From positions 1 through 14,133 of the forward strand of contig JBHLPF010000056.1 of the NCBI GenBank assembly GCA_048939765.1: a stretch of 14,133 bases of DNA, given 5' to 3'. The stretch comes from Promethearchaeota archaeon. Its GTDB lineage: Archaea; Asgardarchaeota; Thorarchaeia; Thorarchaeales; Thorarchaeaceae. Under the pieces are notes generated by a model, which saw only the letters and a program-made list of their open reading frames with translations, did no database searches and was not told the origin of the DNA. The position numbers were made by a program, and so were the translations under genes. This document shows, piece by piece, positions 1,745-13,839 of the stretch (its first letter is position 1; each line of letters opens with the position of its first letter).

Positions 1745-3526
1745 ATGAGTAAAATTCTGCGAGTCAACATGACTGATATGAGTCACAAGTGGGAGGATGT
1801 GCCATCCGCCTATGAGACATTAGCTGGACGCGCTTTTACGTCTGCTGTTGTCAATGTAGAGGTTGAAGCGACGTGTCACCCGCTTCGTGAAAAGAACAAA
1901 TTCGCTATTTCGCCTGGCCTGCTGGCCGGAACTCTTGCACCATCCTCAGCACGATTAAGTGTTGGGGGGAAGTCACCAATGACGGGAGGCATAAAGGAGG
2001 CAAATGCCGGAGGTCTCACTGGGACAAGACTTGCTCGAATCGAAGTTAGGGGAGTTATCATCGAGGGAATGCCAAAGGATGACAACTGGTATAGCCTACT
2101 CATACGGAAGAACAAGGCAGAGATTGTGAAGTCAAACGATTATGCTGGCATGGGTCTCTATGATCTTATTGCGAAGATCTGGAAAGACTACGATTCCAAG
2201 CCAGGAATAATTGGGTGTGGGATCGCAGGGCAGCGACTTCTCACAAACGCAGGTATATTTGGCAACAACATCGAGAACTCGGATCCCGGTCGATATGCTG
2301 GTCGGGGCGGGCTTGGTGCTGTTCTTGGATCCAAGCACATTGTGGCTATCATAAGTGATGATACTGGCGGAAGTCGTCCCGAGGCCAGGGAAAAAGACAA
2401 ATTTGAGATGGGCAGGAAAAAGCTCGTAGCAGCATTGAACAAGCATCCTGTAACAGGGAAGCTCAAGGATGACAAGGGCAAGCCATTTGGCGGACTGAAG
2501 AACTATGGCACCAATATTCTTCAGAATATTATCAGTGAGGCAGGAGGTCTCCCAACAAGGGGCTTTCGTTCCGGTCGATTCGATAAAGCTGCAAAGATCT
2601 CTGGAGAAGCTGTCCATGCACTGGTTGATAAGTGCAAGGAGAAGTACGGCGACAAGTCAGAGGGGCGATATGGCCACCCATGCCATCCGGGATGCATAAT
2701 GGCATGCTCCAACGTCGTGCCTTACGAAGATTCAGGGAAGCTCCATGTTGCACCGCTTGAATACGAGTCAGCTTGGTCGCTCGGGGCAAACCTTGATATC
2801 GGAGTCCTCGACGATGTTGCAGAACTCAATCGATTGTGTAATGATATCGGTCTGGATACAATTGAGGCTGGCAACACCATTGCGATGTTCATGGAGGGCG
2901 GTGTTATCCCATTTGGAGATGGTCCTGCAGCGATCGAGCTGCTGAAGAAGGCCTATGATGAGAAGTCTGTGGAAGGCAAGCTTGTCTGTTCGAGCGCACA
3001 GATTGCTGGCGAAACTCTTGGTGTATCTAGAATTCCATCGGTGAAAGGACAGGCACTTCCTGCATATGACCCGCGACCGATTAGAGGAATTGGTGTTACA
3101 TATGCAACCTCCACAATGGGAGCTGATCACACGGCCGGATATACCATAGCAGCTGAGATTCTTGGCGTAAAGGGTAAAGTGACAGACCCACGAAGTCTTG
3201 ATAAAGCGGAGCTTTCACGCGCATATCAAGCCACAACGGCCTACATTGATTCGACCGGCTACTGTCTATTCATCGCATTCTGCATCTTGGATGATGATGA
3301 CGGATTTGCCGGAATGAAGGACACTGTCGACTCCTTCCTCGGCATGAAGATTGATGTCACAGAGTATGGCTCAGCGATTCTTAAGAACGAGCGGGAGTTC
3401 AACAAGAAAGCTGGCTTCACGAATAAGGACGACAGGTTGCCTGAGTTCTTCTATACCGAGCCATTGCCGCCACACAATGTGGTCTTTGAAGTCAGCGATG
3501 AAGAGCTGGATAAGGTGCACGGATAG
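1745..3526 (+). CDS. aor: Tungsten-dependent aldehyde:ferredoxin oxidoreductase (AOR family)
   Basis: MSKILRVNM start, KSPMTGGIKEANAGG, AGRGGLGAVLGSK, [4Fe-4S] ligands CHPGCIMAC and DSTGYC, EYES, CNDIGLDTI, VKGQALPAYDPR, GADHT, DDRLP; 593 aa. Confidence 0.97.
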   Translation: MSKILRVNMTDMSHKWEDVPSAYETLAGRAFTSAVVNVEVEATCHPLREKNKFAISPGLLAGTLAPSSARLSVGGKSPMTGGIKEANAGGLTGTRLARIEVRGVIIEGMPKDDNWYSLLIRKNKAEIVKSNDYAGMGLYDLIAKIWKDYDSKPGIIGCGIAGQRLLTNAGIFGNNIENSDPGRYAGRGGLGAVLGSKHIVAIISDDTGGSRPEAREKDKFEMGRKKLVAALNKHPVTGKLKDDKGKPFGGLKNYGTNILQNIISEAGGLPTRGFRSGRFDKAAKISGEAVHALVDKCKEKYGDKSEGRYGHPCHPGCIMACSNVVPYEDSGKLHVAPLEYESAWSLGANLDIGVLDDVAELNRLCNDIGLDTIEAGNTIAMFMEGGVIPFGDGPAAIELLKKAYDEKSVEGKLVCSSAQIAGETLGVSRIPSVKGQALPAYDPRPIRGIGVTYATSTMGADHTAGYTIAAEILGVKGKVTDPRSLDKAELSRAYQATTAYIDSTGYCLFIAFCILDDDDGFAGMKDTVDSFLGMKIDVTEYGSAILKNEREFNKKAGFTNKDDRLPEFFYTEPLPPHNVVFEVSDEELDKVHG

Positions 3527-3624: not shown

Positions 3625-3933
3625 ATGATCGAGATTCACCTCTACGGATGTCTCCGTGACCTTGTAACCGGAAGTCGTCCAGATGAAGACACCGTGCTAT
3701 ACCGTGAGGTGACTTCAGAGCAGACATTTGCTGATCTCATTTCTAGCCTCGGCCTCACAAAGGATGAGATTGGGGACTGCTTTATCAACGGGACATTGGC
3801 AAAACTGGATGATCCGATAAAGGATGGCGATCGAATTGGGATGTTCCCATTCAATATGGTTCTTCTTTGTGGCGGTCAACATTTGAAAGGGCATGGCTAT
3901 ACTAAGGATGACGTTGATGTTGACTACTATTAG
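3625..3933 (+). CDS. MoaD/ThiS-family beta-grasp (ubiquitin-like) protein with C-terminal extension beyond GG
   Basis: AAGGAG RBS at 3612-3617. MIEIHLYGCL start, FING, IKDGDRIGMFP fit the MoaD/ThiS pattern. LLCGG is followed by QHLKGHGYTKDDVDVDYY. Confidence 0.85.
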   Translation: MIEIHLYGCLRDLVTGSRPDEDTVLYREVTSEQTFADLISSLGLTKDEIGDCFINGTLAKLDDPIKDGDRIGMFPFNMVLLCGGQHLKGHGYTKDDVDVDYY

Positions 3934-3942
3934 GTGACACAT

Positions 3943-4185
3943 ATGAGAGTGAGTGTGAAACTCTATGCGACCCTTCAAGAATATTCGCCTCCTGAAACAG
4001 AACTGGGTAAGGAATTCTCAGTGGACCTAACGGGGAGAACTGTTATCGAACTTCTGTCCAAACTGGGAATCAAAGATGAGCAGGCAAAAATAGTCATGGT
4101 GAACGGAATCCGCATTGATACCTTGAGTTATGAATTGAAAGAGAATGATTTGATTGTGATATTCCCGCCTATTGGTGGCGGCTAG
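3943..4185 (+). CDS. MoaD/ThiS/SAMP-family sulfur carrier (ubiquitin-like)
   Basis: AGGTGA RBS (3932-3937) overlaps the upstream stop, supporting ATG 3943. VKLYATL, VMVNG, LKENDLIVIFPPIGGG with free C-terminal Gly-Gly. Confidence 0.93.
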   Translation: MRVSVKLYATLQEYSPPETELGKEFSVDLTGRTVIELLSKLGIKDEQAKIVMVNGIRIDTLSYELKENDLIVIFPPIGGG

Positions 4186-4339: not shown

Positions 4340-4381
4340 AGGCACGTAGAGTCATTTTGATTGCTCTGGGTGAGCTCCTTG

Positions 4382-4621
4382 ATGGTCAATGTGAAGCTAT
4401 ATGCAGGCTTGAGGAAATTCATGCCAAGTGATACTGAACTAGGCGATTTCTTTCAATACGAATTTCAGGGGAGCACGGTAAGCGATCTGTTAAAGACACT
4501 TGGCATAAAGGAAGTGCACGTACAAAATGTCATGATCAACGGGGAGCGGGCCATCGACTTCAGTGAGACTCTAGCTAAAGACGATCTTGTATCGATCTTT
4601 CCGCCCATTGGTGGCGGTTAG
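4382..4621 (+). CDS. MoaD/ThiS/SAMP-family sulfur carrier (ubiquitin-like), paralog of 3943-4185
   Basis: GGTGA RBS at 4369-4373, ATG 4382. VKLYAGL, VMING, DDLVSIFPPIGGG. About 39/78 identities to the upstream paralog by hand alignment. Confidence 0.93.
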   Translation: MVNVKLYAGLRKFMPSDTELGDFFQYEFQGSTVSDLLKTLGIKEVHVQNVMINGERAIDFSETLAKDDLVSIFPPIGGG

Positions 4622-4644: not shown

Positions 4645-5922
4645 TCAAATCTTGAGAATGAAACGCGGCATCAGGCGGGCCACGATTTCACACATATTGA
4701 GATTCACTGCTCTTCTGACAACCTCTCGTCCTCTATAGCTATACTCGAGTTCACGCGGATTAGAGAAGACCTTCTCCGATTCATGACCTGTCGACATGTC
4801 TGTGACATAGTGGCGTGTCCCTCCTTTTGATTCAATGACTCGATTGATTCCAAGAATTGAATCAAATTTGTATCCTCCACCATGCGGGAGGATATTGGCT
4901 CTTAGAAGCCGGTGAGAAACTCCGTATCTTTCAGCACGTCGTGTAAAACCGAGATGCTCCACTGCTTCAACATCGAAGTTGGGTTTGCCTTTCACAAGAT
5001 ATGCTGGTAGGTCTGCTCGAAGGGCAATTGGGAGCAAATTCCCGTCTTCCGTTATATTCTGACATCCCAGCAGATGATGATTCATGTTCTGAAGCCCTTG
5101 ATGTATAGGGTTGCATATTTCAGTGAACTCACCAAAAATGGCTTCAGCGGCATGAAGTCGTTTCTTTCTACTCAGCTCGCAGGCAAAGTCATTGAGCTTC
5201 AAGTACTCCACGGCAGCCTCGTCCTTGACCACCCAAGTCTTCCCAAATGGCGTATCAATTTCCTCGGCCATTTCACTAAGAATAGGGCTCTTGTGACGAT
5301 ATAATCCAAAACCGAAATGAGTGGAATTATCCCCTTTCAGCTCGGGGACGGATCCGTGAATGACGAAAATATACCTGTAGGAGGAATCAGCCTCCTCATC
5401 CAAAGGTTTGTGTCGATATAGGTCAATGAAGTGATTACTTACAGCGAAATCCCATTCAATGACGACGTCGTCTATGACCTCTTCCGATCCTAGAACCGTA
5501 CTGATATTGTCAATGAGCGAATCAATCTTTGGAAGATTATCGAGCCCACCAACGAGCATTCCACAGGCATTAGGCATGGAGTCAAGGAATATAACCTTCC
5601 TATCACCATCCCCCCAGGATAGCTTTCCCCCATAACCCAAACCGCTATTCCATCTTTTGACATTTCGAGTAACGGTCGCATCCGGAGCACCTACAAAGGT
5701 GGCATCAGGTTCCATGCCGAGCTGGAAAAGGGCATGATGGATTTTGGCCAATCCATATTTCATATTTGCGACACAGAGGGCATTTGCAGAATCCATCAGA
5801 CCACTTGAGAACACATGACCTGAGGCTCTGTCTAGCACATCATTTCGAGATAAAGATTCAAAATCTCTTGTCACTCTTTTCATCTCCAGATTCTTCCCAC
5901 TCATGGCAGACTGATTTGTCAC
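4645..5922 (-). CDS. Divergent RtcB-superfamily protein (putative metal-dependent nucleotidyltransferase/ligase)
   Basis: RtcB-like motifs in correct order: APDAT (D81), GLGYGG, PNACGM (C120), SNHFIDL (N163/H164), FVIHGS (H189), PIHQG (H274), LPHGGG (H347), ELEYSYR, C-terminal VARLMPRFILK. GTG start overlaps the upstream TGA (GTGA); ATG 5904 is an alternative. Confidence 0.75.
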   Translation of the reverse strand: MTNQSAMSGKNLEMKRVTRDFESLSRNDVLDRASGHVFSSGLMDSANALCVANMKYGLAKIHHALFQLGMEPDATFVGAPDATVTRNVKRWNSGLGYGGKLSWGDGDRKVIFLDSMPNACGMLVGGLDNLPKIDSLIDNISTVLGSEEVIDDVVIEWDFAVSNHFIDLYRHKPLDEEADSSYRYIFVIHGSVPELKGDNSTHFGFGLYRHKSPILSEMAEEIDTPFGKTWVVKDEAAVEYLKLNDFACELSRKKRLHAAEAIFGEFTEICNPIHQGLQNMNHHLLGCQNITEDGNLLPIALRADLPAYLVKGKPNFDVEAVEHLGFTRRAERYGVSHRLLRANILPHGGGYKFDSILGINRVIESKGGTRHYVTDMSTGHESEKVFSNPRELEYSYRGREVVRRAVNLNMCEIVARLMPRFILKI

Positions 5923-6575
5923 TGAGTTTCCACTAGTAGTTCTTCTCCGAAAAGGTCCTCAATGGAGGCCATCCTCGCGCTTAGGCGGTCTTCGACAACA
6001 AAAAGAAACTCAAGTAGTTCTTGATGCAGACTGTCTCCTAGCTCTTTGCTGACTTCGTAATTCAATTTGCCATAGTCATGCTTACGTTTCTCCATGTATT
6101 TGGTCATTATGCTCTCCATACTCCCCGTCTTACCAATAAAACCGCGAAGCAGTCCCATGAGACCAAGGCGGTCCAAGGTGTCTGCATCATAGACGATTTT
6201 TTCCTCTGGGGTAACTGGCGGTATCTTGGAGGTTGGAGTATGCCGGACAACTACTCGTGTAATTGTATCACGCACGTCCTTGTCAACATTGAGACCGTCA
6301 AGAAACTCCTCTGCTAGAGTACCCCCAAAGAGACCATGAATGTGTGAGAATACTCGATTGGTCTTACCAATGTCATGCATTAGAGCTCCAGCAATGCACA
6401 CAAACGGGTCGACGTCCTTGTCGATGTTCTTGGCAATCTCAATGGCATATTTACAGACCGTGAAGACATGAGAGTAGTCATGGCTGTCACTTTCTGCATG
6501 AGCCGCTCTCACAAACTCTTGCATCTGAAGCAACATCTTCAGCTCTTTCTCAGTTAGCATTCTTGCAAAGACCAT
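5919..6575 (-). CDS. HD-domain metal-dependent phosphohydrolase
   Basis: HDYSHVFTV, ALMHDIGK, SHIHG, VVRHT, VYDADTLD give a complete H...HD...H...H...D set. Start uncertain (ATG 6584, 6575 or 6560). Confidence 0.92.
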   Translation of the reverse strand: MVFARMLTEKELKMLLQMQEFVRAAHAESDSHDYSHVFTVCKYAIEIAKNIDKDVDPFVCIAGALMHDIGKTNRVFSHIHGLFGGTLAEEFLDGLNVDKDVRDTITRVVVRHTPTSKIPPVTPEEKIVYDADTLDRLGLMGLLRGFIGKTGSMESIMTKYMEKRKHDYGKLNYEVSKELGDSLHQELLEFLFVVEDRLSARMASIEDLFGEELLVETQ

Positions 6576-6715
6576 TTTGCTCATTCTAATATGGATGCAT
6601 TCCGAGTTAAAGAAATCGCACACACCTTTTATTCGACTTCTGTATCAAATATCAACCACATTAGATTCATAACATACCACTATCATTGTGTGTATGGTTA
6701 GGGAGACCGTGTAGG

Positions 6716-8332
6716 ATGACACCACCATCTGACCCATCAGAAGTATCTCCGGGATTTGATGAAGCGATGTATCTTGATATTCTTCGAGACAATCCGCCCC
6801 TGAAGCGCTATGTATCCCGGGGGGACACACGAGATTCAATTGATATCATTGGGCCCCACGAAGACGCTGACCGTGCAATCTTTCGAGCAATTCGTTTTAC
6901 AATGCAAGATGGCATTCCGCGATTTCAGCCTATTCTGGGAAGTGCTGGGATGGGAAAAACACACTTATTCTGGTCATTGAAAGACCGAGAAGACTACTTC
7001 AAAAGAGGAAGATTCCTGGCTGTCTATGTACCATCTCCTCCCGCTCCAATTCGCATTCCTCTTCATATTCATGCCTGTATTGTTGATACGGCAGGAGAAG
7101 ACATCTTCAATCAGGCTGTTGATATGCTATTGATTAAGTTTGGTGGTCTGGGTGGCGTTTCGCATGAAACATATGACTACACATATGCAATGGAGCGACT
7201 GCTATGCGACTATCCTGGAATATCGGCAGATGTTATGAAGACGCTTCTGAGGTATCGGCTAGACCCGGCTAACAGTGATCTTGCTAGACGCTGGCTTTTT
7301 GGTGATGCGCTCAGTAATGAAGAGATTGTTCGGCTTGGTGTTCGAACCGTATTGGAAGAAGACGATGTTACACTGGCAACCCTCAAGCTTCTTGCTGAAG
7401 GATCAACATTGCCTATCCTACTATTCATTGATGAGATGGAGGGACCATATAATACGCATGGCGAGGAAGCTGAGCGTCGGTTCTTTGAGACATTGAAGCG
7501 ACTATACAATGAAACACGAAACATCGTTATTGTTGCATCAAGTCTGACAGAGATCTGGGATCGGATCTATGAACTTGCTGATGCTCCGATGAAGTCTAGG
7601 ATGGAACGGGTGGTTCATCTACAGCCTTTTGAGAAGGACGATGTGGCTGAGTTCATTCATAAGACCATGAAAGAGTTCTGGACAGAACAGAATGTTGAGC
7701 CCCCTCCAGAGGCATTATTCCCATTCACCGAGAAGGACGTAGAAGAGATATTCGTAAAGTCGGATGGAGTGCCAAGGGATGCAATCAAACACGCGATCTC
7801 CAGACTGGATTCCATCCTATTTGAAAAAGAAGAGGTTGAGGTTGAGGAACAGCCAGACTATGTCATCAAGCTTACACCTACGGTTGTAATCAGTTCCATA
7901 ATCAAGGCGATGGAAGTGACAGGAAAATCCACGGGTATTGATGTGGAGATAGATGCAGATGCAACCAAGGCGACCAAGGAATCTACATCGATTGTCCTAG
8001 TTACAAAGGGTGGTGTCACCAGAAAGGTGGGAATTGATGTTCCTGGAGTTAAGGATTGGAATCGCAGTGGAGGTGTTGCGGCGTTCTATTCAGCAAAACG
8101 TCTTCAGAAACTAATCGAATCTGGTGCCATCAATATGGGAGTCATCGCTGTTCCAGAAGCCACTGCCGGTGCCAAATTCGAGGCAGCCCTAGATGACTAT
8201 GGTGACTCATTAGTTGCAGTTCGACTTACTGAAGAGAGTGGACTTGACTTAGTAGAACGCACTACAGAGGGCCGACTATTGAAGGCTCAGAAAGATATTC
8301 TTACTGGCATTCTAGAACCTATTTTTGATTGA
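6716..8332 (+). CDS. AAA+ P-loop ATPase (BrxC/BrxD-like) with unassigned alpha/beta C-terminal domain
   Basis: Likely ATG 6716. Walker A GSAGMGKT, Walker B LLFIDEME, sensor-1-like VIVASS, Arg-finger-like KSRME, FPFT and sensor-2-like GVPRDAIK. Large helical insert with ARRWLFG between Walker A and B. Confidence 0.85.
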   Translation: MTPPSDPSEVSPGFDEAMYLDILRDNPPLKRYVSRGDTRDSIDIIGPHEDADRAIFRAIRFTMQDGIPRFQPILGSAGMGKTHLFWSLKDREDYFKRGRFLAVYVPSPPAPIRIPLHIHACIVDTAGEDIFNQAVDMLLIKFGGLGGVSHETYDYTYAMERLLCDYPGISADVMKTLLRYRLDPANSDLARRWLFGDALSNEEIVRLGVRTVLEEDDVTLATLKLLAEGSTLPILLFIDEMEGPYNTHGEEAERRFFETLKRLYNETRNIVIVASSLTEIWDRIYELADAPMKSRMERVVHLQPFEKDDVAEFIHKTMKEFWTEQNVEPPPEALFPFTEKDVEEIFVKSDGVPRDAIKHAISRLDSILFEKEEVEVEEQPDYVIKLTPTVVISSIIKAMEVTGKSTGIDVEIDADATKATKESTSIVLVTKGGVTRKVGIDVPGVKDWNRSGGVAAFYSAKRLQKLIESGAINMGVIAVPEATAGAKFEAALDDYGDSLVAVRLTEESGLDLVERTTEGRLLKAQKDILTGILEPIFD

Positions 8333-8392: not shown

Positions 8393-8974
8393 CTAGTTCT
8401 CTTGCTGACCATTTTCTGAAGAGTCAGGCGCAGCTGGTGCATCTTCCTCCTCCTCACCTTTGCAGACAAGTTCCGGCAATACGATGATTGCAATGAAAAT
8501 AAGAGCGATAACAGCCAAGCCCGTGGGAGTTCTGAGAAACATCGACACTTCTCCAAGATAGGGGATTCTCAATATCACGACGCCTATTATCTCATCTATT
8601 GTGCGATTACCGGGGTCATTTGCGTGATTCGCATCGCCTTTTGTGAAGAAGTAGTAGGTTTCGCCCACAATGTCGATTGCCACAACTCGATGAACAACCG
8701 GTGCATCGGGAAACCACTCATCCTGATACACGATAATGTCACTGAGATGTATGTCTTCGGCTGGCCGCCCTTGCAGCACCAGAAGGTCTCCTCGTTGGAG
8801 TGCTGGAACCATTGAATCACTTGTCACGACTACCAAAGGACTTGAGGTTCGCATGGTGAGTATGAAACCACCATAGCCCCCAATCGTGATTAGAACGACG
8901 ATGAAGAGTACTATGACAGTCTTTTGCATCTCAGAGCGGCTGTCCCATCCCAATGCTTGGCGCACTCGTTCCAT
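8393..8974 (-). CDS. sec11: Signal peptidase I, archaeal/ER type (S26B)
   Basis: N-terminal TM, VVTSDSMVP (catalytic Ser), RGDLL, VVHRV (His), TKGDAN..ND, C-terminal TM and acidic tail. Likely start ATG 8974. Confidence 0.95.
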   Translation of the reverse strand: MERVRQALGWDSRSEMQKTVIVLFIVVLITIGGYGGFILTMRTSSPLVVVTSDSMVPALQRGDLLVLQGRPAEDIHLSDIIVYQDEWFPDAPVVHRVVAIDIVGETYYFFTKGDANHANDPGNRTIDEIIGVVILRIPYLGEVSMFLRTPTGLAVIALIFIAIIVLPELVCKGEEEEDAPAAPDSSENGQQEN

Positions 8975-9093
8975 TACTTGTGCCTCGACAGATGAGAGGA
9001 ATTGTGGTTGACTAATAAAACTGACTGCGCTATTCTGCTCGACAAGCCTAGAACGCAACGTTAAACTGGGCGTAGCGAGTCTTCCATTATATC

Positions 9094-10233
9094 ATGAGCA
9101 GTCTATGGGTAAAGACGTGGAAAAGCACGCCTCAAATTGACTGTGGTCTTTGCGGAGAGGCGACCTGCGCCAGCTTTGCAAGGGCTTTGGTTGTAGGTAG
9201 GACTGAATTAGACAAATGTCCTCTTCTTGCCCTAGACAAATACAAAGACCGTCGAGAGGAGTTGGAGCATCTAAGCAAGAGAAGACCAAAACTGATAGGA
9301 AAGTCTGCGGCGAAGCTACCAGAAGGAGGAATGCTTCTCACACGTCCCTGTCAAGACACAGATGAAAAGGTCATGGCGGAACTCCGAGTGTTCAATGGTG
9401 TCGAAGCTGGCGAGCCGATTTACTTTGGAGTGTTTGAACCCTCGCTTCTCTGCGATTTCATGGACTGTATCGCGGATAGATTTGAACTAGTACGTTGCAG
9501 TAGAGACCTTGGATATGGCAGAGCAGAGATCGAAGACATGAGCATCACAATACTGCAAGATGGCAGAGTGAATATGAGGAGAGTCAGTGACGAGCAGCGT
9601 GTTTTAGACCTATTCAGACAGATTGAGCGTGCAATCTATGGTTCAATTATATGCAACTGCTGTGGCCATGATCTCCTCTCGGTGGTATCTGGATTTGCGC
9701 CACTAGAGAACGAACCCCATACTGTGCTTTCAGCTGGGAGCACACTTAGTCTAGACACTGAGATTCTTGAGAACAGAATGACTTCTCCTGAGATTAAATC
9801 TATCCTTCACAAGGCTGGAGTTATGGAGCACATCGAGACGGCTATCGAGCAGCTCAATGCGCTCCTTGCCAAGATTGATGCTAAGGACTTCTCAGCCACT
9901 TTCATGGATCATGACGCTGATTCAGGATTCTGCTCGATAGCGAATGTTGCAGTCAACAGCACTGACGATTCTCTATTCACCATCGCTGTGATTGCGCTGG
10001 CTCTGCTAAAGGCCGTTAATAATGCAGTAGCTGGGTTGTCAGAGATTCAAACTATATTTCGTGAAGGATCCGAAGCCCAAGTTGAAGCCGGACTCCAGCT
10101 ATTATCGAACGCGGAAGTCGGTCAATTGAATCCATCATTGGAATATTCAGATGATCTCATTGAGATAGTTGCGCACCTGACACGCGTAAATCGCACCATC
10201 AATTTACTTAGAGATCATGGCTGGAAATCCTAG
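9094..10233 (+). CDS. Fe-S cluster-binding domain protein of unknown function
   Basis: N-terminal PQIDCGLCGEATCASFARAL...KCP (CxxCxxxxC...CP, as in RnfB/AcsC N-terminal FeS domain). Extra Cys motifs TRPC, RCSRDLG, ICNCCG. Helical C-terminal region. TATA-like GTTAAAC at 9060-9066. Confidence 0.85.
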   Translation: MSSLWVKTWKSTPQIDCGLCGEATCASFARALVVGRTELDKCPLLALDKYKDRREELEHLSKRRPKLIGKSAAKLPEGGMLLTRPCQDTDEKVMAELRVFNGVEAGEPIYFGVFEPSLLCDFMDCIADRFELVRCSRDLGYGRAEIEDMSITILQDGRVNMRRVSDEQRVLDLFRQIERAIYGSIICNCCGHDLLSVVSGFAPLENEPHTVLSAGSTLSLDTEILENRMTSPEIKSILHKAGVMEHIETAIEQLNALLAKIDAKDFSATFMDHDADSGFCSIANVAVNSTDDSLFTIAVIALALLKAVNNAVAGLSEIQTIFREGSEAQVEAGLQLLSNAEVGQLNPSLEYSDDLIEIVAHLTRVNRTINLLRDHGWKS

Positions 10234-10688
10234 TGGGTCCATTCCTTTGTGGCCTTGTCAATAATCCTCTGCGCATTCGGGTGCTGAGCCGTGTCAATTC
10301 GCCACTCATGTACCCACTTCCACTCACCACTTGCCTGAATGAAATTCTGGAAGATCTTTAGGTTCTGCGCTTCAAGACGAGCACATTTCATAGCTTGGAT
10401 GTCATCACACCTGATAGGAGGACATATTGTCGAGCTAACAACATACCACAGATCCTCACCCAATTTCGTTGCTGCTATCACAGCTGGACATGGATCTATG
10501 TTCTCACGAAAGATTACTTGATCTCCCTCATTGATAGATACATCTCCTTCAACGATTGAGCCATCCTTTCTCCTAACGGTGGTGATAAAATCAGTTAGCA
10601 CCCTTTCAGCGCCTTTCTTGACATCATTCAAACTGGCCTTAACAACAATCCCTTCATATAATGCGGAACCTTCGGAACTCATCTTCAT
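10230..10688 (-). CDS. Hypothetical protein with four Cys
   Basis: GGAG RBS just upstream of ATG 10688; 152 aa; DPCP and CPPIRC...KC. Its stop overlaps the convergent gene's stop in CTAG (10230-10233). Confidence 0.75.
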   Translation of the reverse strand: MKMSSEGSALYEGIVVKASLNDVKKGAERVLTDFITTVRRKDGSIVEGDVSINEGDQVIFRENIDPCPAVIAATKLGEDLWYVVSSTICPPIRCDDIQAMKCARLEAQNLKIFQNFIQASGEWKWVHEWRIDTAQHPNAQRIIDKATKEWTH

Positions 10689-10830
10689 GACTCCAATTCA
10701 TCTATGATTAATGCAAGCAAATCACACTTTATCTTTTGCCGAAAGCAATCATCTATGTATTTTCTCGTCAGAACTAACCTTAGTCCTTAAAAGATGGCTT
10801 AGAAACTTGCACGGGTGCTCGGTGGATGAA

Positions 10831-12210
10831 ATGAGGATAACCCCGGTTCGCTCTGAAGGACTCGCACACCTCTCGTATTTTGTGAGCTCCGAAGGCGAAG
10901 CAATGGTAGTTGACCCTCGGCGTGATGTCGACGTGTATCTGGATTTGGCGGATAAGAGTCAATCAAGAGTCACTCACATCTTTGAAACGCACCGAAACGA
11001 GGACTATGCGATTGGGTCTCTTGAATTGCAGTATCATGTCCCACTCGTTGAGATTTGCCATAGTAAGGAAACCAGATTCAAGTATGGAAACCATTCACTC
11101 ACTCATGAGGATTCATTCAGAGTGGGATCCATGAAAGTCACTTGCCTCCATACCCCTGGACATACAGATGATAGCATGTGCTACCTACTCTCGGACATGT
11201 CAGTGAGTGCCAGCCCTATAGTTATCTTCACGGGAGACACACTCTTTGTTGGGGAGGTGGGAAGAACAGATCTAGTTGACAAGAAGCGACATGAGGAGAT
11301 GTCTAGGAAGTTATACTCTAGTCTGCAAGAAACAATACTTCCACTCGGGGATGGCATCATAGTCTATCCAGGTCATGGTGCTGGATCCGTATGCGGCGGG
11401 GATATCGGAAAGAGGGAGTTCTCTACCATTGGTTTCGAGCGTAGTAATAGCAAGTGGTTGAGCTTGGACGAAGATGAATTTGTGCGAAGGAAATTGAGTC
11501 AGAGTCTCACATATTCCACGTACTTCAAGCACTGCGAATATCTCAATACTATTGGTCCTCCACTAATAGCAGAGCTTGCGACGCCTCGGGCTCTCGATCC
11601 AGAAACTCTTGACAAATTGAGAGGTGAGCCAGACCACGTTGTAGTAGATACGAGGTCTCCTGACTTCTTTGTCTGCGGTCATGTCCCCGACGCAATTAGT
11701 GCACCTCTCAAAGATATGGGACTGTTTGCTGGATGGGTAATGGAGCCAGATTGGAAATTCCTGTTGGTATTGGAGAGGAGTGAAGATCTGCAATTGGCAA
11801 GGAGTATCTTGCTAAGAATTGGATTTGACAATGTTATTGGGTATTTGGGATCTGGAATGGACGGATGGTATGAGACGGGAAGACCAAGAAGCACCATCAG
11901 AACCATTGATTTGGACGTCTTGAAAGATGTCTTTGAAACTGGAACTCTGGAGATGGTTGATGTGCGCCAACCACATGAACAAGAACGGGAGTATATTGAA
12001 GGTTCGAAATTCATTCCATTGACAGATATTAGGGCGCAGTCTTCTGAAATCGATCAGGAACAATCTATTGTGACCATGTGTCCAGGCGGAGTCAGAGCAA
12101 CAGCAGCGGCGAGCTTGCTGAAGAGAGCAGGACATGAGAACATTTCAGTTTCTCTTGATGGAATCAAGGGGTGGAGGCAGAAAGGCTATCCGATTAAAAC
12201 TCAGGAGTAG
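10831..12210 (+). CDS. MBL-fold persulfide-dioxygenase-like domain fused to two rhodanese domains (CstB-like)
   Basis: GGTGG RBS, ATG 10831. VVDPRRD, FETHRNEDY, HTPGHT, FTGDTLF, YPGHGAGSVCG. First rhodanese (VVDTRS...GHVPDA) lacks an active-loop Cys; second (VDVRQ...CPGGVRA...LDGIKGW) has it. Confidence 0.92.
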   Translation: MRITPVRSEGLAHLSYFVSSEGEAMVVDPRRDVDVYLDLADKSQSRVTHIFETHRNEDYAIGSLELQYHVPLVEICHSKETRFKYGNHSLTHEDSFRVGSMKVTCLHTPGHTDDSMCYLLSDMSVSASPIVIFTGDTLFVGEVGRTDLVDKKRHEEMSRKLYSSLQETILPLGDGIIVYPGHGAGSVCGGDIGKREFSTIGFERSNSKWLSLDEDEFVRRKLSQSLTYSTYFKHCEYLNTIGPPLIAELATPRALDPETLDKLRGEPDHVVVDTRSPDFFVCGHVPDAISAPLKDMGLFAGWVMEPDWKFLLVLERSEDLQLARSILLRIGFDNVIGYLGSGMDGWYETGRPRSTIRTIDLDVLKDVFETGTLEMVDVRQPHEQEREYIEGSKFIPLTDIRAQSSEIDQEQSIVTMCPGGVRATAAASLLKRAGHENISVSLDGIKGWRQKGYPIKTQE

Positions 12211-12255
12211 AATTCGTAGGGATTATCGACACAATAGAGGAAGGTGAATCATTGT

Positions 12256-13839
12256 ATGTCACAGGGATTCTCAGGTCGTTCCGACGTGCTTGCAAAGAAT
12301 GGTCTTGTAGCGACTTCTCAGCCTCTAGCCACGCAAGCTGGACTCAGGGTGCTTCAAGCTGGTGGGAACGCCATCGATGCGGCAATCGCAGCAGCAGCCG
12401 TCCTCGATGTTGTAGAGCCGTTCAGCACGGGATGTGGCGGGGATGCATTTGCATTGATTCATATGCCAGGAGCAAAGAAGCCCTTAAGCTACAATGGTTC
12501 AGGGCGGGCGGGCTCTCTTGTATCCTTTGAAGAACTCAAGGAAAAGGGATGGACTGAGATACCTCTGCTAGGTGGTGCATCTGTTACCGTTCCCGGTGCC
12601 ATGCATCTCTGGTTCTATCTTGTTGAGCAACATGGCTCTCTTGAAATGAGTGAGGTGCTTTGCGATGCTATCCATTATGCTAGAGAAGGGTTTCCGGTTT
12701 CCCCCATTATTGCCAGATCTTGGGCCGGAAATGTTGATGGTTTGCTGAACGACGCAGCTAAGGGCATATTCATGCCTAATGGTCGAGCTCCACTGACAGG
12801 CGACATAATGCGGAATAGGGATCTCGCTGCAACTTTTGAGCGTCTCTCAAGGGAGGGGGTGGATGCTTTTTATGCCGGCGACATAGCCGAAGCGATTGTC
12901 AACACCGTTCAGAACCATGACGGATTTCTCACTATGGATGATATGGAGCGGCACAGGTCTCTCCAGACGGAACCAATCTCTACAGACTATCGAGGACTTT
13001 GTGTATACGAGCATCCTCCAAACGGCCAAGGCTTTGCAGCACTCGAAATGCTCAACCTGATGGAAGAGTACAACATCTCAGGGTATGATTCCCTGGCGGC
13101 GGAGCGTTTCCACATTATGATTGAGGCCAAGAAACTCGCTTATGCGGACCTTATGCAGCATTGCGCGGATCCAGAATTCTACAAGGTTCCTATACCTCAG
13201 CTCATTTCCAAAGTGTATTCGAAAACTAGAGCTGAACTCATCAAAATGAATGAAGCATCTGGCTCTTTTAGAACAGGCATTCCATTGGGGCAAGATACAA
13301 TCTATCTTTGCACTGCCGATAGTGACGGACAAGCCGTGTCGTTCATCAATAGCTTGTACCTGGGTTTCGGAAGCGGGCTTGTTGTTCCTGGGACCGGAAT
13401 CAAGCTTCACTGCCGGGGTAACCTCTTTTCACTGGATCCTGGTCATCCGAATCGATATGAACCCGGAAAACTACCTTTCCACACAATCATTCCGGGTGCT
13501 CTCTATGAGGGAGATCACTTTCATGGCGTGTTTGGTATCATGGGAGGCGCGCACCAAGCCCAAGCACATGCTCAGTTTGTCAGCAATATTGTCGACCATG
13601 AGATGTCTCCACAACAGGCCATAGACCATCCTCGGTTCAATCACGATCAAGGTTCTAATACAGTGGCGGTAGAAGCGGGAGTTCCTCAGACCGTTCAAAT
13701 CGAACTCCTTCGACTGGGACATACCATCGTGGAATCACCCATGGCGGCTTTTGGTGGAGGACAGGCAATTCTCAGATGTGGCAGTGGTTGGATTGCGGGT
13801 TCCGACCATCGAAAGGATGGCATGGCCGCGGGCTTCTAG
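12256..13839 (+). CDS. ggt: Gamma-glutamyltransferase family protein (Ntn hydrolase)
   Basis: AGGTGA RBS 12242-12247. VATSQPLA, GGNAIDAAIA, GCGGDAF, VTVPGA, PPNGQG, autocleavage/nucleophile Thr in QDTIYL, GFGSG, PGKLPFHTIIP, GIMGG, GSDHRKDG. Confidence 0.95.
   Translation: MSQGFSGRSDVLAKNGLVATSQPLATQAGLRVLQAGGNAIDAAIAAAAVLDVVEPFSTGCGGDAFALIHMPGAKKPLSYNGSGRAGSLVSFEELKEKGWTEIPLLGGASVTVPGAMHLWFYLVEQHGSLEMSEVLCDAIHYAREGFPVSPIIARSWAGNVDGLLNDAAKGIFMPNGRAPLTGDIMRNRDLAATFERLSREGVDAFYAGDIAEAIVNTVQNHDGFLTMDDMERHRSLQTEPISTDYRGLCVYEHPPNGQGFAALEMLNLMEEYNISGYDSLAAERFHIMIEAKKLAYADLMQHCADPEFYKVPIPQLISKVYSKTRAELIKMNEASGSFRTGIPLGQDTIYLCTADSDGQAVSFINSLYLGFGSGLVVPGTGIKLHCRGNLFSLDPGHPNRYEPGKLPFHTIIPGALYEGDHFHGVFGIMGGAHQAQAHAQFVSNIVDHEMSPQQAIDHPRFNHDQGSNTVAVEAGVPQTVQIELLRLGHTIVESPMAAFGGGQAILRCGSGWIAGSDHRKDGMAAGF

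Follow-up and report, generated by a model that had tools for sequence, protein, structure and literature searches.

The 14,133 nucleotide (nt) stretch of DNA analysed here, referred to throughout as the window, is contig JBHLPF010000056.1 (C17) of a 3.37 Mb metagenome-assembled genome (MAG) from an Asgard archaeon of Thorarchaeota/Hermodarchaeota-like affiliation. It contains two neighbouring genes on the minus strand, the first specifying an HD-domain phosphohydrolase and the second a compact enzyme with the fold of the ligase RtcB, for which the working names HD and X, respectively, are used for gene and protein alike (Table 1). These were singled out in a preliminary description as a translationally coupled pair forming the only minus-strand unit between plus-strand neighbours. 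Both immediate flanking genes are indeed on the plus strand, but other minus-strand genes are found farther off. The same description reported the usual partners of RtcB to be missing from the window, in agreement with which domain searches of the window's proteins found no archease, RtcA or RtcR gene.

Table 1. Features of the HD-X locus and its surroundings, in coordinates of the window; aa, amino acids; ORF, open reading frame
Feature	Position	Strand	Remarks
X gene (compact RtcB-fold enzyme)	4645..5874	-	likeliest form, 409 aa from GTG 5874
Alternative X start, GTG 5922	4645..5922	-	longest ORF, 425 aa; its use would render 5875..5918 coding and give a 4-nt overlap with HD
Invariant residues of X			D81, N118, C120, N163-H164-F165, D167, H189, H274-Q275, H347-G348-x-G350-Y351, K424 (425-aa numbering)
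Spacer from HD stop to probable X start	5875..5918	-	from the sequence and the junction alignment of loci L001-L005
Shine-Dalgarno-like GGAG	5887-5884	-	within the HD-X spacer, 9 nt ahead of GTG 5874
HD gene (YpgQ/YedJ-type HD phosphohydrolase)	5919..6575	-	probably 218 aa from ATG 6575
Alternative HD starts			ATG 6584; longest ORF reaches 6623
Invariant residues of HD			H48, H52, H83-D84, H96, H128, D146-A147-D148 (234-aa numbering)
Divergent intergenic region, HD/STAND-like ATPase	6576..6685		presumed HD-X promoter region, from the ORF map
ThiS-like gene	4361-4621	+	immediate neighbour of X
STAND-like ATPase gene	6686-8332	+	neighbour, divergent from the HD gene
Further minus-strand genes	436-1092, 8393-9058, 10230-10688	-

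In the ORF map, the longest frames extend over 4645-5922 for X (425 aa) and 5919-6623 for HD (234 aa), both on the minus strand. With these limits the TGA stop of HD (5921-5919) overlaps an in-frame GTG (5922-5920) within the GTGA at 5919-5922, from which translational coupling had been proposed; the overlap itself is present, but coupling through it is unlikely, as homologues and a conserved GGAG favour initiation at GTG 5874, after a 44-nt spacer. Residues 1-16 of the long X frame are not conserved and are poorly modelled. In the closest relatives of X (L001 and L002, 83-84% identity) the HD gene stops at TAG and is followed by a spacer, and among the closest homologues this stop-bounded spacer is ~35 nt long, with a conserved GGAG(G/A)TGA 5-6 nt ahead of the start. 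The window junction reads GGAGATGA, then GTG-ACA-AGA at 5874-5872, where L001 and L002 have ATG ACA AGG. Since GTG 5874 is also consistent with the family-profile match (4648-5871) and with the start that NCBI annotates for P0005, the X gene most likely begins there, 44 nt from the HD stop. The earlier assumption that HD starts at ATG 6575 fits the 'MFSR/MVFAR' start of its homologues. In the other 11 loci of the Thorarchaeota clade, the gaps between longest ORFs are 2-91 nt in nine cases and 236 and 1771 nt in two, with no instance of overlap; HD/X overlaps of 4-8 nt are present in Clostridia, Aerophobetes and one Nanoarchaeota single-amplified genome (SAG). HD and X are likely to form an operon, of which overlap coupling is not a conserved feature. 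Consensus scanning gave chance-level results, predicting no minus-strand terminator-like site between HD and X with a method ill-suited to archaea, and yielding nothing above background in the promoter scan of the HD-X region, for which the consensus is not informative in archaea.

The sequence of X falls short of the gathering score of the RtcB family model (PF01139/COG1690), and has no match in Pfam, PF01139 included, even at E ≤ 10, nor any in NCBIfam; likewise, RtcB was not found among PDB sequences by phmmer or by hmmsearch with A1 and A3. Its homologues number more than 1167 in 90% clusters, all of them 'hypothetical' and none with a Pfam domain, and an exhaustive profile search resolved the family into 377 clusters at 50% identity. 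However, an AlphaFold model of X computed from the alignment, with a predicted local distance difference test (pLDDT) score of 90.8 and a predicted template modelling (pTM) score of 0.90, has the RtcB fold: the only significant Foldseek matches in the PDB are RtcB chains (E 2e-8 to 7e-6). Six anchors are collinear between X and RtcB, the spacings in the X family and in RtcB being, respectively, 39 and 33 residues from PD to Cys, 43 and 104 from Cys to NHF, 25 and 33 from NHF to His, 85 and 94 from His to His, 75 in both from His to the nucleophile His, and 79 and 78 from the latter to the C-terminus. Similarly, the best hhalign alignment of X with 27 Asgard RtcBs is collinear, with the catalytic motifs in register. 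Approximately 70 alignment columns are invariant over 47 members of the X family, every catalytic anchor among them, and all anchors except K424 are also invariant in Asgard paralogues of only 24-30% identity (L200-L206). These paralogues form a second, more divergent group (in Asgard genomes G026, G151, G003, G167, G102, G142 and G015), of 404-447 aa, in which the catalytic anchors are kept and the terminal Lys is absent. Some genomes harbour two or three X-family genes.

The active site of RtcB is well charted. In the Pyrococcus horikoshii enzyme (PhoRtcB), Mn1 is bound by Cys98, His234 and His329 and Mn2 by Asp95, Cys98 and His203, with His404 as the nucleophile, and in human RTCB Asn226 and His428 touch the phosphate of guanosine monophosphate (GMP) whilst Glu230 and Lys504 touch the guanine (PMC8051266, PMC8668186). 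The only charted contacts with the 5'-OH strand are Arg238, Arg190 and Gln194 of PhoRtcB (PMC8051266). Counterparts retained in X are C120, H189, H274, H164, N163, D167, H347 and K424. When mapped by fold and motif order, the Mn1 set is complete (C120, H189 and H274, invariant in the 47 members and in the 24-30% paralogues), while of the Mn2 ligands the Cys and the His (H164 of NHF) are kept and the Asp is gone, the DxxC Asp being replaced in P117-N118-A-C120, with N118 invariant. His347, also invariant, stands in the motif P-H-G-x-G-Y, at a distance of 75 residues from the second Mn1 His and of 79 from the C-terminus (75 and 78 in RtcB), and the Arg of the RtcB motif HGAGR corresponds to Tyr351. 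The 5'-OH strand contacts are not conserved: the position of Arg238 (His+4) is occupied by Pro in 35 of the 47 members, Arg in 8, Ser in 3 and Gly in 1, and the Cys-to-NHF segment, at 43 rather than 104 residues, is shorter by ~60, such that the region of Arg190 and Gln194 is missing. X therefore appears, as judged from its sequence, to retain the nucleotidyl-transfer centre and to have lost the sole charted nucleic-acid contacts. The RtcB-like label originally given to it is upheld by the Foldseek matches and the invariant anchors, which indicate a true RtcB fold and a nucleotidyl-transfer centre that seems to be intact. The kinship of X with RtcB is genuine but very distant; as it has no match to the family model and lacks both the Mn2 Asp and the contacts to the strand, X is best placed in a compact family of its own within the RtcB superfamily.

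The upstream gene had been identified as encoding an HD domain, and this is confirmed by a match to PF01966 (E 1.9e-11, 44.7 bits against a cut-off of 22). A profile of 30 X-linked HDs retrieves Bacillus subtilis YpgQ (5DQV, E 1.5e-24), Lin1889, YedJ and structural-genomics HD hydrolases, and HD has a full-length fold match to the YpgQ/YedJ family (PDB 5DQV, 3GW7). YpgQ is a Mn-dependent pyrophosphohydrolase of (deoxy)nucleoside triphosphates, (d)NTPs, with a mononuclear H..HD..D site, and the six-residue H..HD..H..H..D motif is diagnostic of dinuclear HD sites, such as that of YqeK (PMC8177086). HD possesses the H...HD...D ligands as invariant H52, H83-D84 and D148 and, with H96 and H128 also invariant, displays the 'H..HD..H..H..D' pattern; H96 and H128 have no YpgQ counterpart in the alignment, and these extra residues suggest a second metal. 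HD is probably a YpgQ-like hydrolase with two metals. It represents a new subgroup near YpgQ/YedJ, scoring far below the NCBIfam equivalog cut-offs for PRK10119 (44.1 bits against 286) and TIGR00295 (33.7 against 172). The protein consists of a single 218-aa HD domain; kinase domains are absent from both it and X, and kinases are not conserved among the neighbouring genes. A second HD gene in the window's genome (G000:C78:39611-40189) is a paralogue of the X-linked HD (profile E 5e-34).

The association of these genes was assessed in a sample of 80 X loci from GTDB species representatives together with the window, a full flank being defined as at least 900 nt on both sides. A full-length HD orthologue (41-85% identity) adjoins X in 35 loci of the sample, and in 32 of the 67 with full flanks. 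HD is upstream of X in 21 of the 35, downstream in 13 and divergent in one, and the gap between the two is no more than 91 nt in 30. The linkage, in either gene order, reaches at least 10 phyla, the taxa including Thor/Hermodarchaeota, Helarchaeota, Bathyarchaeia (with a divergent HD variant) and a Nanoarchaeota SAG among archaea, and Desulfobacterales, Spirochaetota, Anaerolineae, Planctomycetota, Clostridia and Aerophobetes among bacteria. A scan seeded with HD extends it to Woesearchaeota, Chloroflexia and Halanaerobiales, X lying within 3 kb of 12 of the 17 tight HD orthologues among the matches listed. In a quick maximum-likelihood tree of X, the linked loci occupy at least eight well-supported clades. 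By contrast, other neighbours vary: the 149 genes directly flanking the unit match 142 Pfam families, none of which is present more than six times, and the few that recur do so within particular clades (ETF-alpha/ferredoxin, Ddl-like ATP-grasp, PolX and TetR). Across lineages X keeps no partner other than HD, and the adjacency is far beyond chance. Restriction of the linkage to very close relatives had been set beforehand as the observation that should overturn the pairing; instead, it is present from Asgard archaea to Bacillota and Aerophobetes. The distances between X proteins and between their HD partners correlate with r = 0.69 (Mantel 0/2000), falling to 0.25 for pairs of less than 60% identity, a result which is confounded by shared descent and hence consistent with the association rather than independent evidence of it. 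No X-HD fusion occurs among the best 150 matches of an exhaustive search of representatives, in which one other fusion, of an APH kinase to X, was found, and a word-based search with a single protein or profile, by its nature weak evidence, found no X fusion above 745 aa.

Several lineages have their own arrangements around X. In Clostridia and Aerophobetes (L055, L059, L066, L071, L075 and L078), the gene order is an ETF-alpha/ferredoxin fusion, HD, X and a 412-aa protein with no Pfam match; the last of these was considered as a second X paralogue and ruled out (hhalign E 0.25). In Planctomycetota (L031, L042, L048, L049, L052, L058 and L060), a second X copy without HD follows DksA/TraR zinc-finger and TetR genes, near genes for a pyruvoyl arginine decarboxylase, an arginase/agmatinase and a Ser/Thr kinase on the opposite strand, and the HD-linked X of these genomes is located elsewhere.

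The distributions of the two genes are nested. X is found in 56 of 151 Asgard genomes, and canonical RtcB in all 31 of those sampled. The scores of HD homologues in the 151 genomes are bimodal, with a tight group at E ≤ 1e-82 set apart from a paralogue at E 1e-25 to 1e-54, the latter being widespread, occurring with or without X, and represented in the window's genome by the C78 gene. The tight orthologue is present in 12 genomes, every one of which also has X, adjacent or near in seven, unlinked in three and at contig ends in two. Among 40 further genomes with an HD-less X locus, 13 carry the tight HD at another position, adjoining a second copy of X in G038 at least, and three of the four genomes whose HD has no adjacent X have X elsewhere. 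The phyletic patterns, which the preliminary description had named as a second ground for rejection should they prove unrelated, thus place HD within the range of X; since HD is found only where X is, and X is often alone, the HD orthologue depends on X and not the reverse. Because canonical RtcB (C87, E 3e-178), archease (C64) and RtcA (C68) are encoded elsewhere in the window's genome, all unlinked to the window, X is not the housekeeping ligase. In a genome of the same genus (L196, G174:C30:18500-23500, which is the L007 locus), both genes contain in-frame stops, with a TAA at approximately residue 27 of X, upstream of the invariant H36-F38-S39, and a TAG at approximately residue 181 of HD; possible causes are decay of both genes together, an error in sequencing, or recoding.

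Fold, conserved residues, linkage and nested distribution are the observations on which the favoured reading is based, to which a probability of about 0.42 is assigned: HD and X would form a conserved two-enzyme module, X working through a histidine-linked nucleoside monophosphate (His-NMP) and HD serving as an accessory downstream of it. The catalytic steps, the nucleotide used and the direction of the HD role are those which we infer, as follows. X would react with a nucleoside triphosphate (NTP), probably guanosine triphosphate (GTP), using two metal ions held by C120, H189, H274 and H164, to give X-(His347)-NMP; GTP is suggested as the likely choice by the retention of D167, in the place of the acid that contacts guanine, and of K424, the penultimate Lys. 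X would then hand the NMP to a phosphomonoester end, generating R-pp-N, a cap that might be either the final product or displaced by a hydroxyl to yield a phosphodiester. HD, in turn, would hydrolyse the pyrophosphate-linked NMP adduct, the NMP-enzyme or the NTP, as a de-capping, proofreading or turnover factor and not as a preparer of substrate. That it may act on the product of X, rather than preparing its substrate, is argued from its occurrence only with X while X is often alone; of the roles that had been proposed for HD, obligatory upstream end preparation is disfavoured by this nestedness, and a downstream or 'eraser' role is favoured by inference. De-capping, proofreading or turnover would be the most economical function, because the alpha-beta anhydride cleaved in NTPs by YpgQ-type enzymes is also the bond found in R-pp-G, and is advanced as a tentative proposal, somewhat short of an even chance, from sequence and analogy. 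The substrate of X would be other than the canonical tRNA exon pair.

A number of points weigh against this interpretation. The profile of X against the 27 Asgard RtcBs gave E 0.05, below significance, and even in the divergent X paralogues PF01139 is matched only below threshold (E 0.04-0.3); as sequence homology is not significant, the residue mapping between X and RtcB depends on fold and motif order. Replacement of the Mn2 Asp and the presence of Tyr for the HGAGR Arg mean that NTP binding or transfer of the adduct may differ from that in RtcB. The role of HD is argued from its distribution together with the chemistry of a relative of only 23% identity, and the dinuclear reading of H96 and H128 is suggested by an alignment. 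In addition, an HD orthologue is absent beside about half of X loci, and the tight HD is absent from 44 of the 56 Asgard genomes with X; with so many X loci and genomes lacking it, HD is dispensable, and the incompleteness of MAGs blurs the calls of absence for both genes.

The order of action might alternatively be reversed, with HD as an upstream healer of ends (a 2',3'-cyclic phosphodiesterase, 2'/3'-phosphatase or 5' processing enzyme) and X as a GTP-dependent 3'-phosphate/5'-OH ligase sealing breaks in RNA or DNA, its substrate arising through stress or damage. End healing is a function of the HD domain in HD-Pnk and CCA-adding enzymes, and X has the fold and catalytic set of RtcB; a PolX-type repair polymerase flanks X in four loci and calcineurin-like phosphoesterases in three, and a 936-aa cluster containing Metallophos appears in the Atlas among the structural neighbours of X. 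This is nevertheless regarded as unlikely, as X would rarely be expected alone if HD made its substrate, and the dependence runs in the opposite direction; moreover, the nearest relatives of HD are nucleotide pyrophosphohydrolases rather than cyclic phosphodiesterases, the adjacency to PolX is limited to one clade (Methanocellales/Halobacteriota), and X is without the PhoRtcB Arg190/Gln194 segment, with Arg238 replaced by Pro in 35 of the 47 members (PMC8051266). The nesting of HD within the distribution of X would also suit a signalling system, in which the product of X is a dinucleoside polyphosphate or an NMPylated protein and a two-metal HD, like YqeK or HD-GYP, destroys the signal, and the H..HD..H..H..D pattern is common to the YqeK-type hydrolases of diadenosine tetraphosphate (Ap4A; PMC8177086). 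However, RtcB-fold enzymes are without precedent for such products, the surroundings contain no conserved sensor or effector gene, and there are no PADLOC, phage or plasmid matches, making this proposal decidedly improbable. When PADLOC-DB 2.0 was searched, X had no match and HD only weak, generic similarity to Cas3-HD (E 1e-4 to 8e-3), and no relatives were found in phage and plasmid collections; a defence-island or mobile-element reading was dropped, having no support from any of these sources. Least probable by far is that the genes are not functionally coupled at all, their adjacency being an accident of hitch-hiking, or X a structural relic devoid of catalytic activity. HD is missing from half of X loci and both genes have in-frame stops in one genome of the same genus, as an accident or relic might, but the adjacency recurs in both orders in at least 10 phyla while other neighbours vary, the co-occurrence of X and HD holds even when they are unlinked, and the ~70 invariant columns in 47 members include all the catalytic anchors.

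A further set of explanations replaces the nucleic acid with a small molecule. X might NMP-ylate a phosphorylated metabolite to form a nucleoside diphosphate (NDP)-ester, and perhaps join it to an alcohol, with HD trimming or recycling the intermediate or the nucleotide by-product. The loss of strand-binding elements from X would accord with this, as would the Ddl-like ATP-grasp genes flanking X in five loci, and above all the fusion of an APH/choline-kinase-type phosphotransferase to X, found on three contigs (P0143 and P0273, of 743 and 748 aa, the latter at L207:7001-9247). The fused X domain is 36% identical to the X of the window with all anchors kept. Genes for two HydE/PylB-like radical SAM enzymes, an ATP-grasp ligase, a HisC/CobD-like pyridoxal phosphate (PLP) enzyme, an SDR, two HAD phosphatases and a GT4 glycosyltransferase accompany the fusion in a conserved cluster, which looks like a small-molecule or glycoconjugate pathway. 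An analogous combination of activities is known in CobU, which is both a kinase and a His-GMP guanylyltransferase. Against this stand the confinement of the APH::X fusion to one small branch, a two-member cluster, the absence of the metabolic cluster at most X loci, and the lack of kinase or biosynthetic neighbours beside the pair in the window, where the neighbours are an aldehyde:ferredoxin oxidoreductase (AOR), ThiS-like proteins and a STAND-like ATPase; for the window's X, such chemistry is considered doubtful. It is similarly a long shot that the whole X family acts as a general 'phosphate-end activator', making NDP-esters or phosphodiesters of metabolites or of glycan or lipid head groups via His-NMP, with HD hydrolysing the activated intermediate. 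If true, this would be the first small-molecule metabolic role for the RtcB superfamily, and an RtcB-fold counterpart of CobU/CobS.

The proposed module of X and HD can be set beside a number of characterised systems. The catalytic core of X appears, from its sequence, to be like that of RtcB itself (PF01139; P. horikoshii PH1602, 1UC2/4DWQ; Thermus thermophilus, 2EPG; human RTCB, 7P3B). RtcB, however, is ~480 aa long against ~409 aa for X, which has no significant sequence match to it; has HGAGR where X has HGGGY, and DxxC where X has P-N-A-C; is present in all 31 sampled Asgard genomes, whereas X is patchy (56 of 151); and is partnered by archease, RtcA, RtcR or PrfH rather than an HD hydrolase. 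The RtcB-archease and RtcB2-PrfH modules likewise consist of an RtcB-type enzyme with a small operon accessory in part of the family's range, but archease is an activation chaperone and PrfH a ribosome-rescue factor, while the accessory of X is a metal-dependent hydrolase, and so a predicted catalytic partner. YpgQ, YedJ and Lin1889 (B. subtilis YpgQ, 5DQV) lack counterparts of the H96 and H128 that are invariant in the X-linked HD, and in the 151 Asgard genomes the tight HD group, unlike the YpgQ family, occurs only together with X. HD-Pnk, Pnkp-Hen1 and Trl1 also tie a phosphoesterase to a strand-joining enzyme; these have a kinase or P-loop domain, which the HD-X pair is without, their sealing is by an ATP-dependent lysyl-AMP ligase rather than an RtcB-type enzyme, and HD belongs to another subfamily. 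In the assembly of the cobalamin loop by CobU and CobS, a phosphomonoester and enzyme-His-GMP give R-pp-G, from which a hydroxyl then displaces GMP. The logic proposed for X may be alike, and the APH::X fusion mimics the kinase plus guanylyltransferase architecture; the fold of CobU is unrelated to that of X, and any likeness would concern the fusion branch, and does not demonstrably extend to the X of the window.

To our knowledge, RtcB is the sole enzyme class that joins 3'-phosphate ends via GTP and histidinyl-GMP. X would be a second family, invisible to annotation, that has kept the catalytic centre, shed the strand-binding parts and gained a partner of its own in the YpgQ-like HD; it numbers ~377 clusters at 50% identity, from archaea (Asgard and others) and from many anaerobic bacteria. 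The pairing had been thought undescribed, and searches of the open-access literature on RtcB-like and HD proteins, YpgQ and RtcB repair, within its incomplete coverage, turned up neither the family nor the pairing. The substrate of X would distinguish a new transaction at RNA or DNA ends, such as capping and de-capping or proofreading, from metabolite chemistry. X and HD are both small proteins that give high-confidence structural models. Functions for two widespread proteins presently annotated as 'hypothetical' or generic 'HD domain' would follow, and tools for ligation or capping could result.

The remainder of the window contains several genes of separate interest. An AOR gene (1745-3526) is followed by three successive small genes for ThiS/MoaD/ubiquitin-like beta-grasp proteins (3625-3933, 3934-4185 and 4361-4621), an unusual triple set. 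The STAND-like NTPase, of 548 aa, has only sub-threshold matches, to ATPase_2, nSTAND1 and BrxC/D, with no match in PADLOC, and its position beside HD and X is conserved no further than the closest relatives in Thorarchaeota (L001, L002 and L008). Farther along, a protein of the metallo-beta-lactamase fold carrying two rhodanese domains (10711-12210), an architecture like that of persulfide dioxygenases, is encoded immediately before a gamma-glutamyltranspeptidase (12244-13839).

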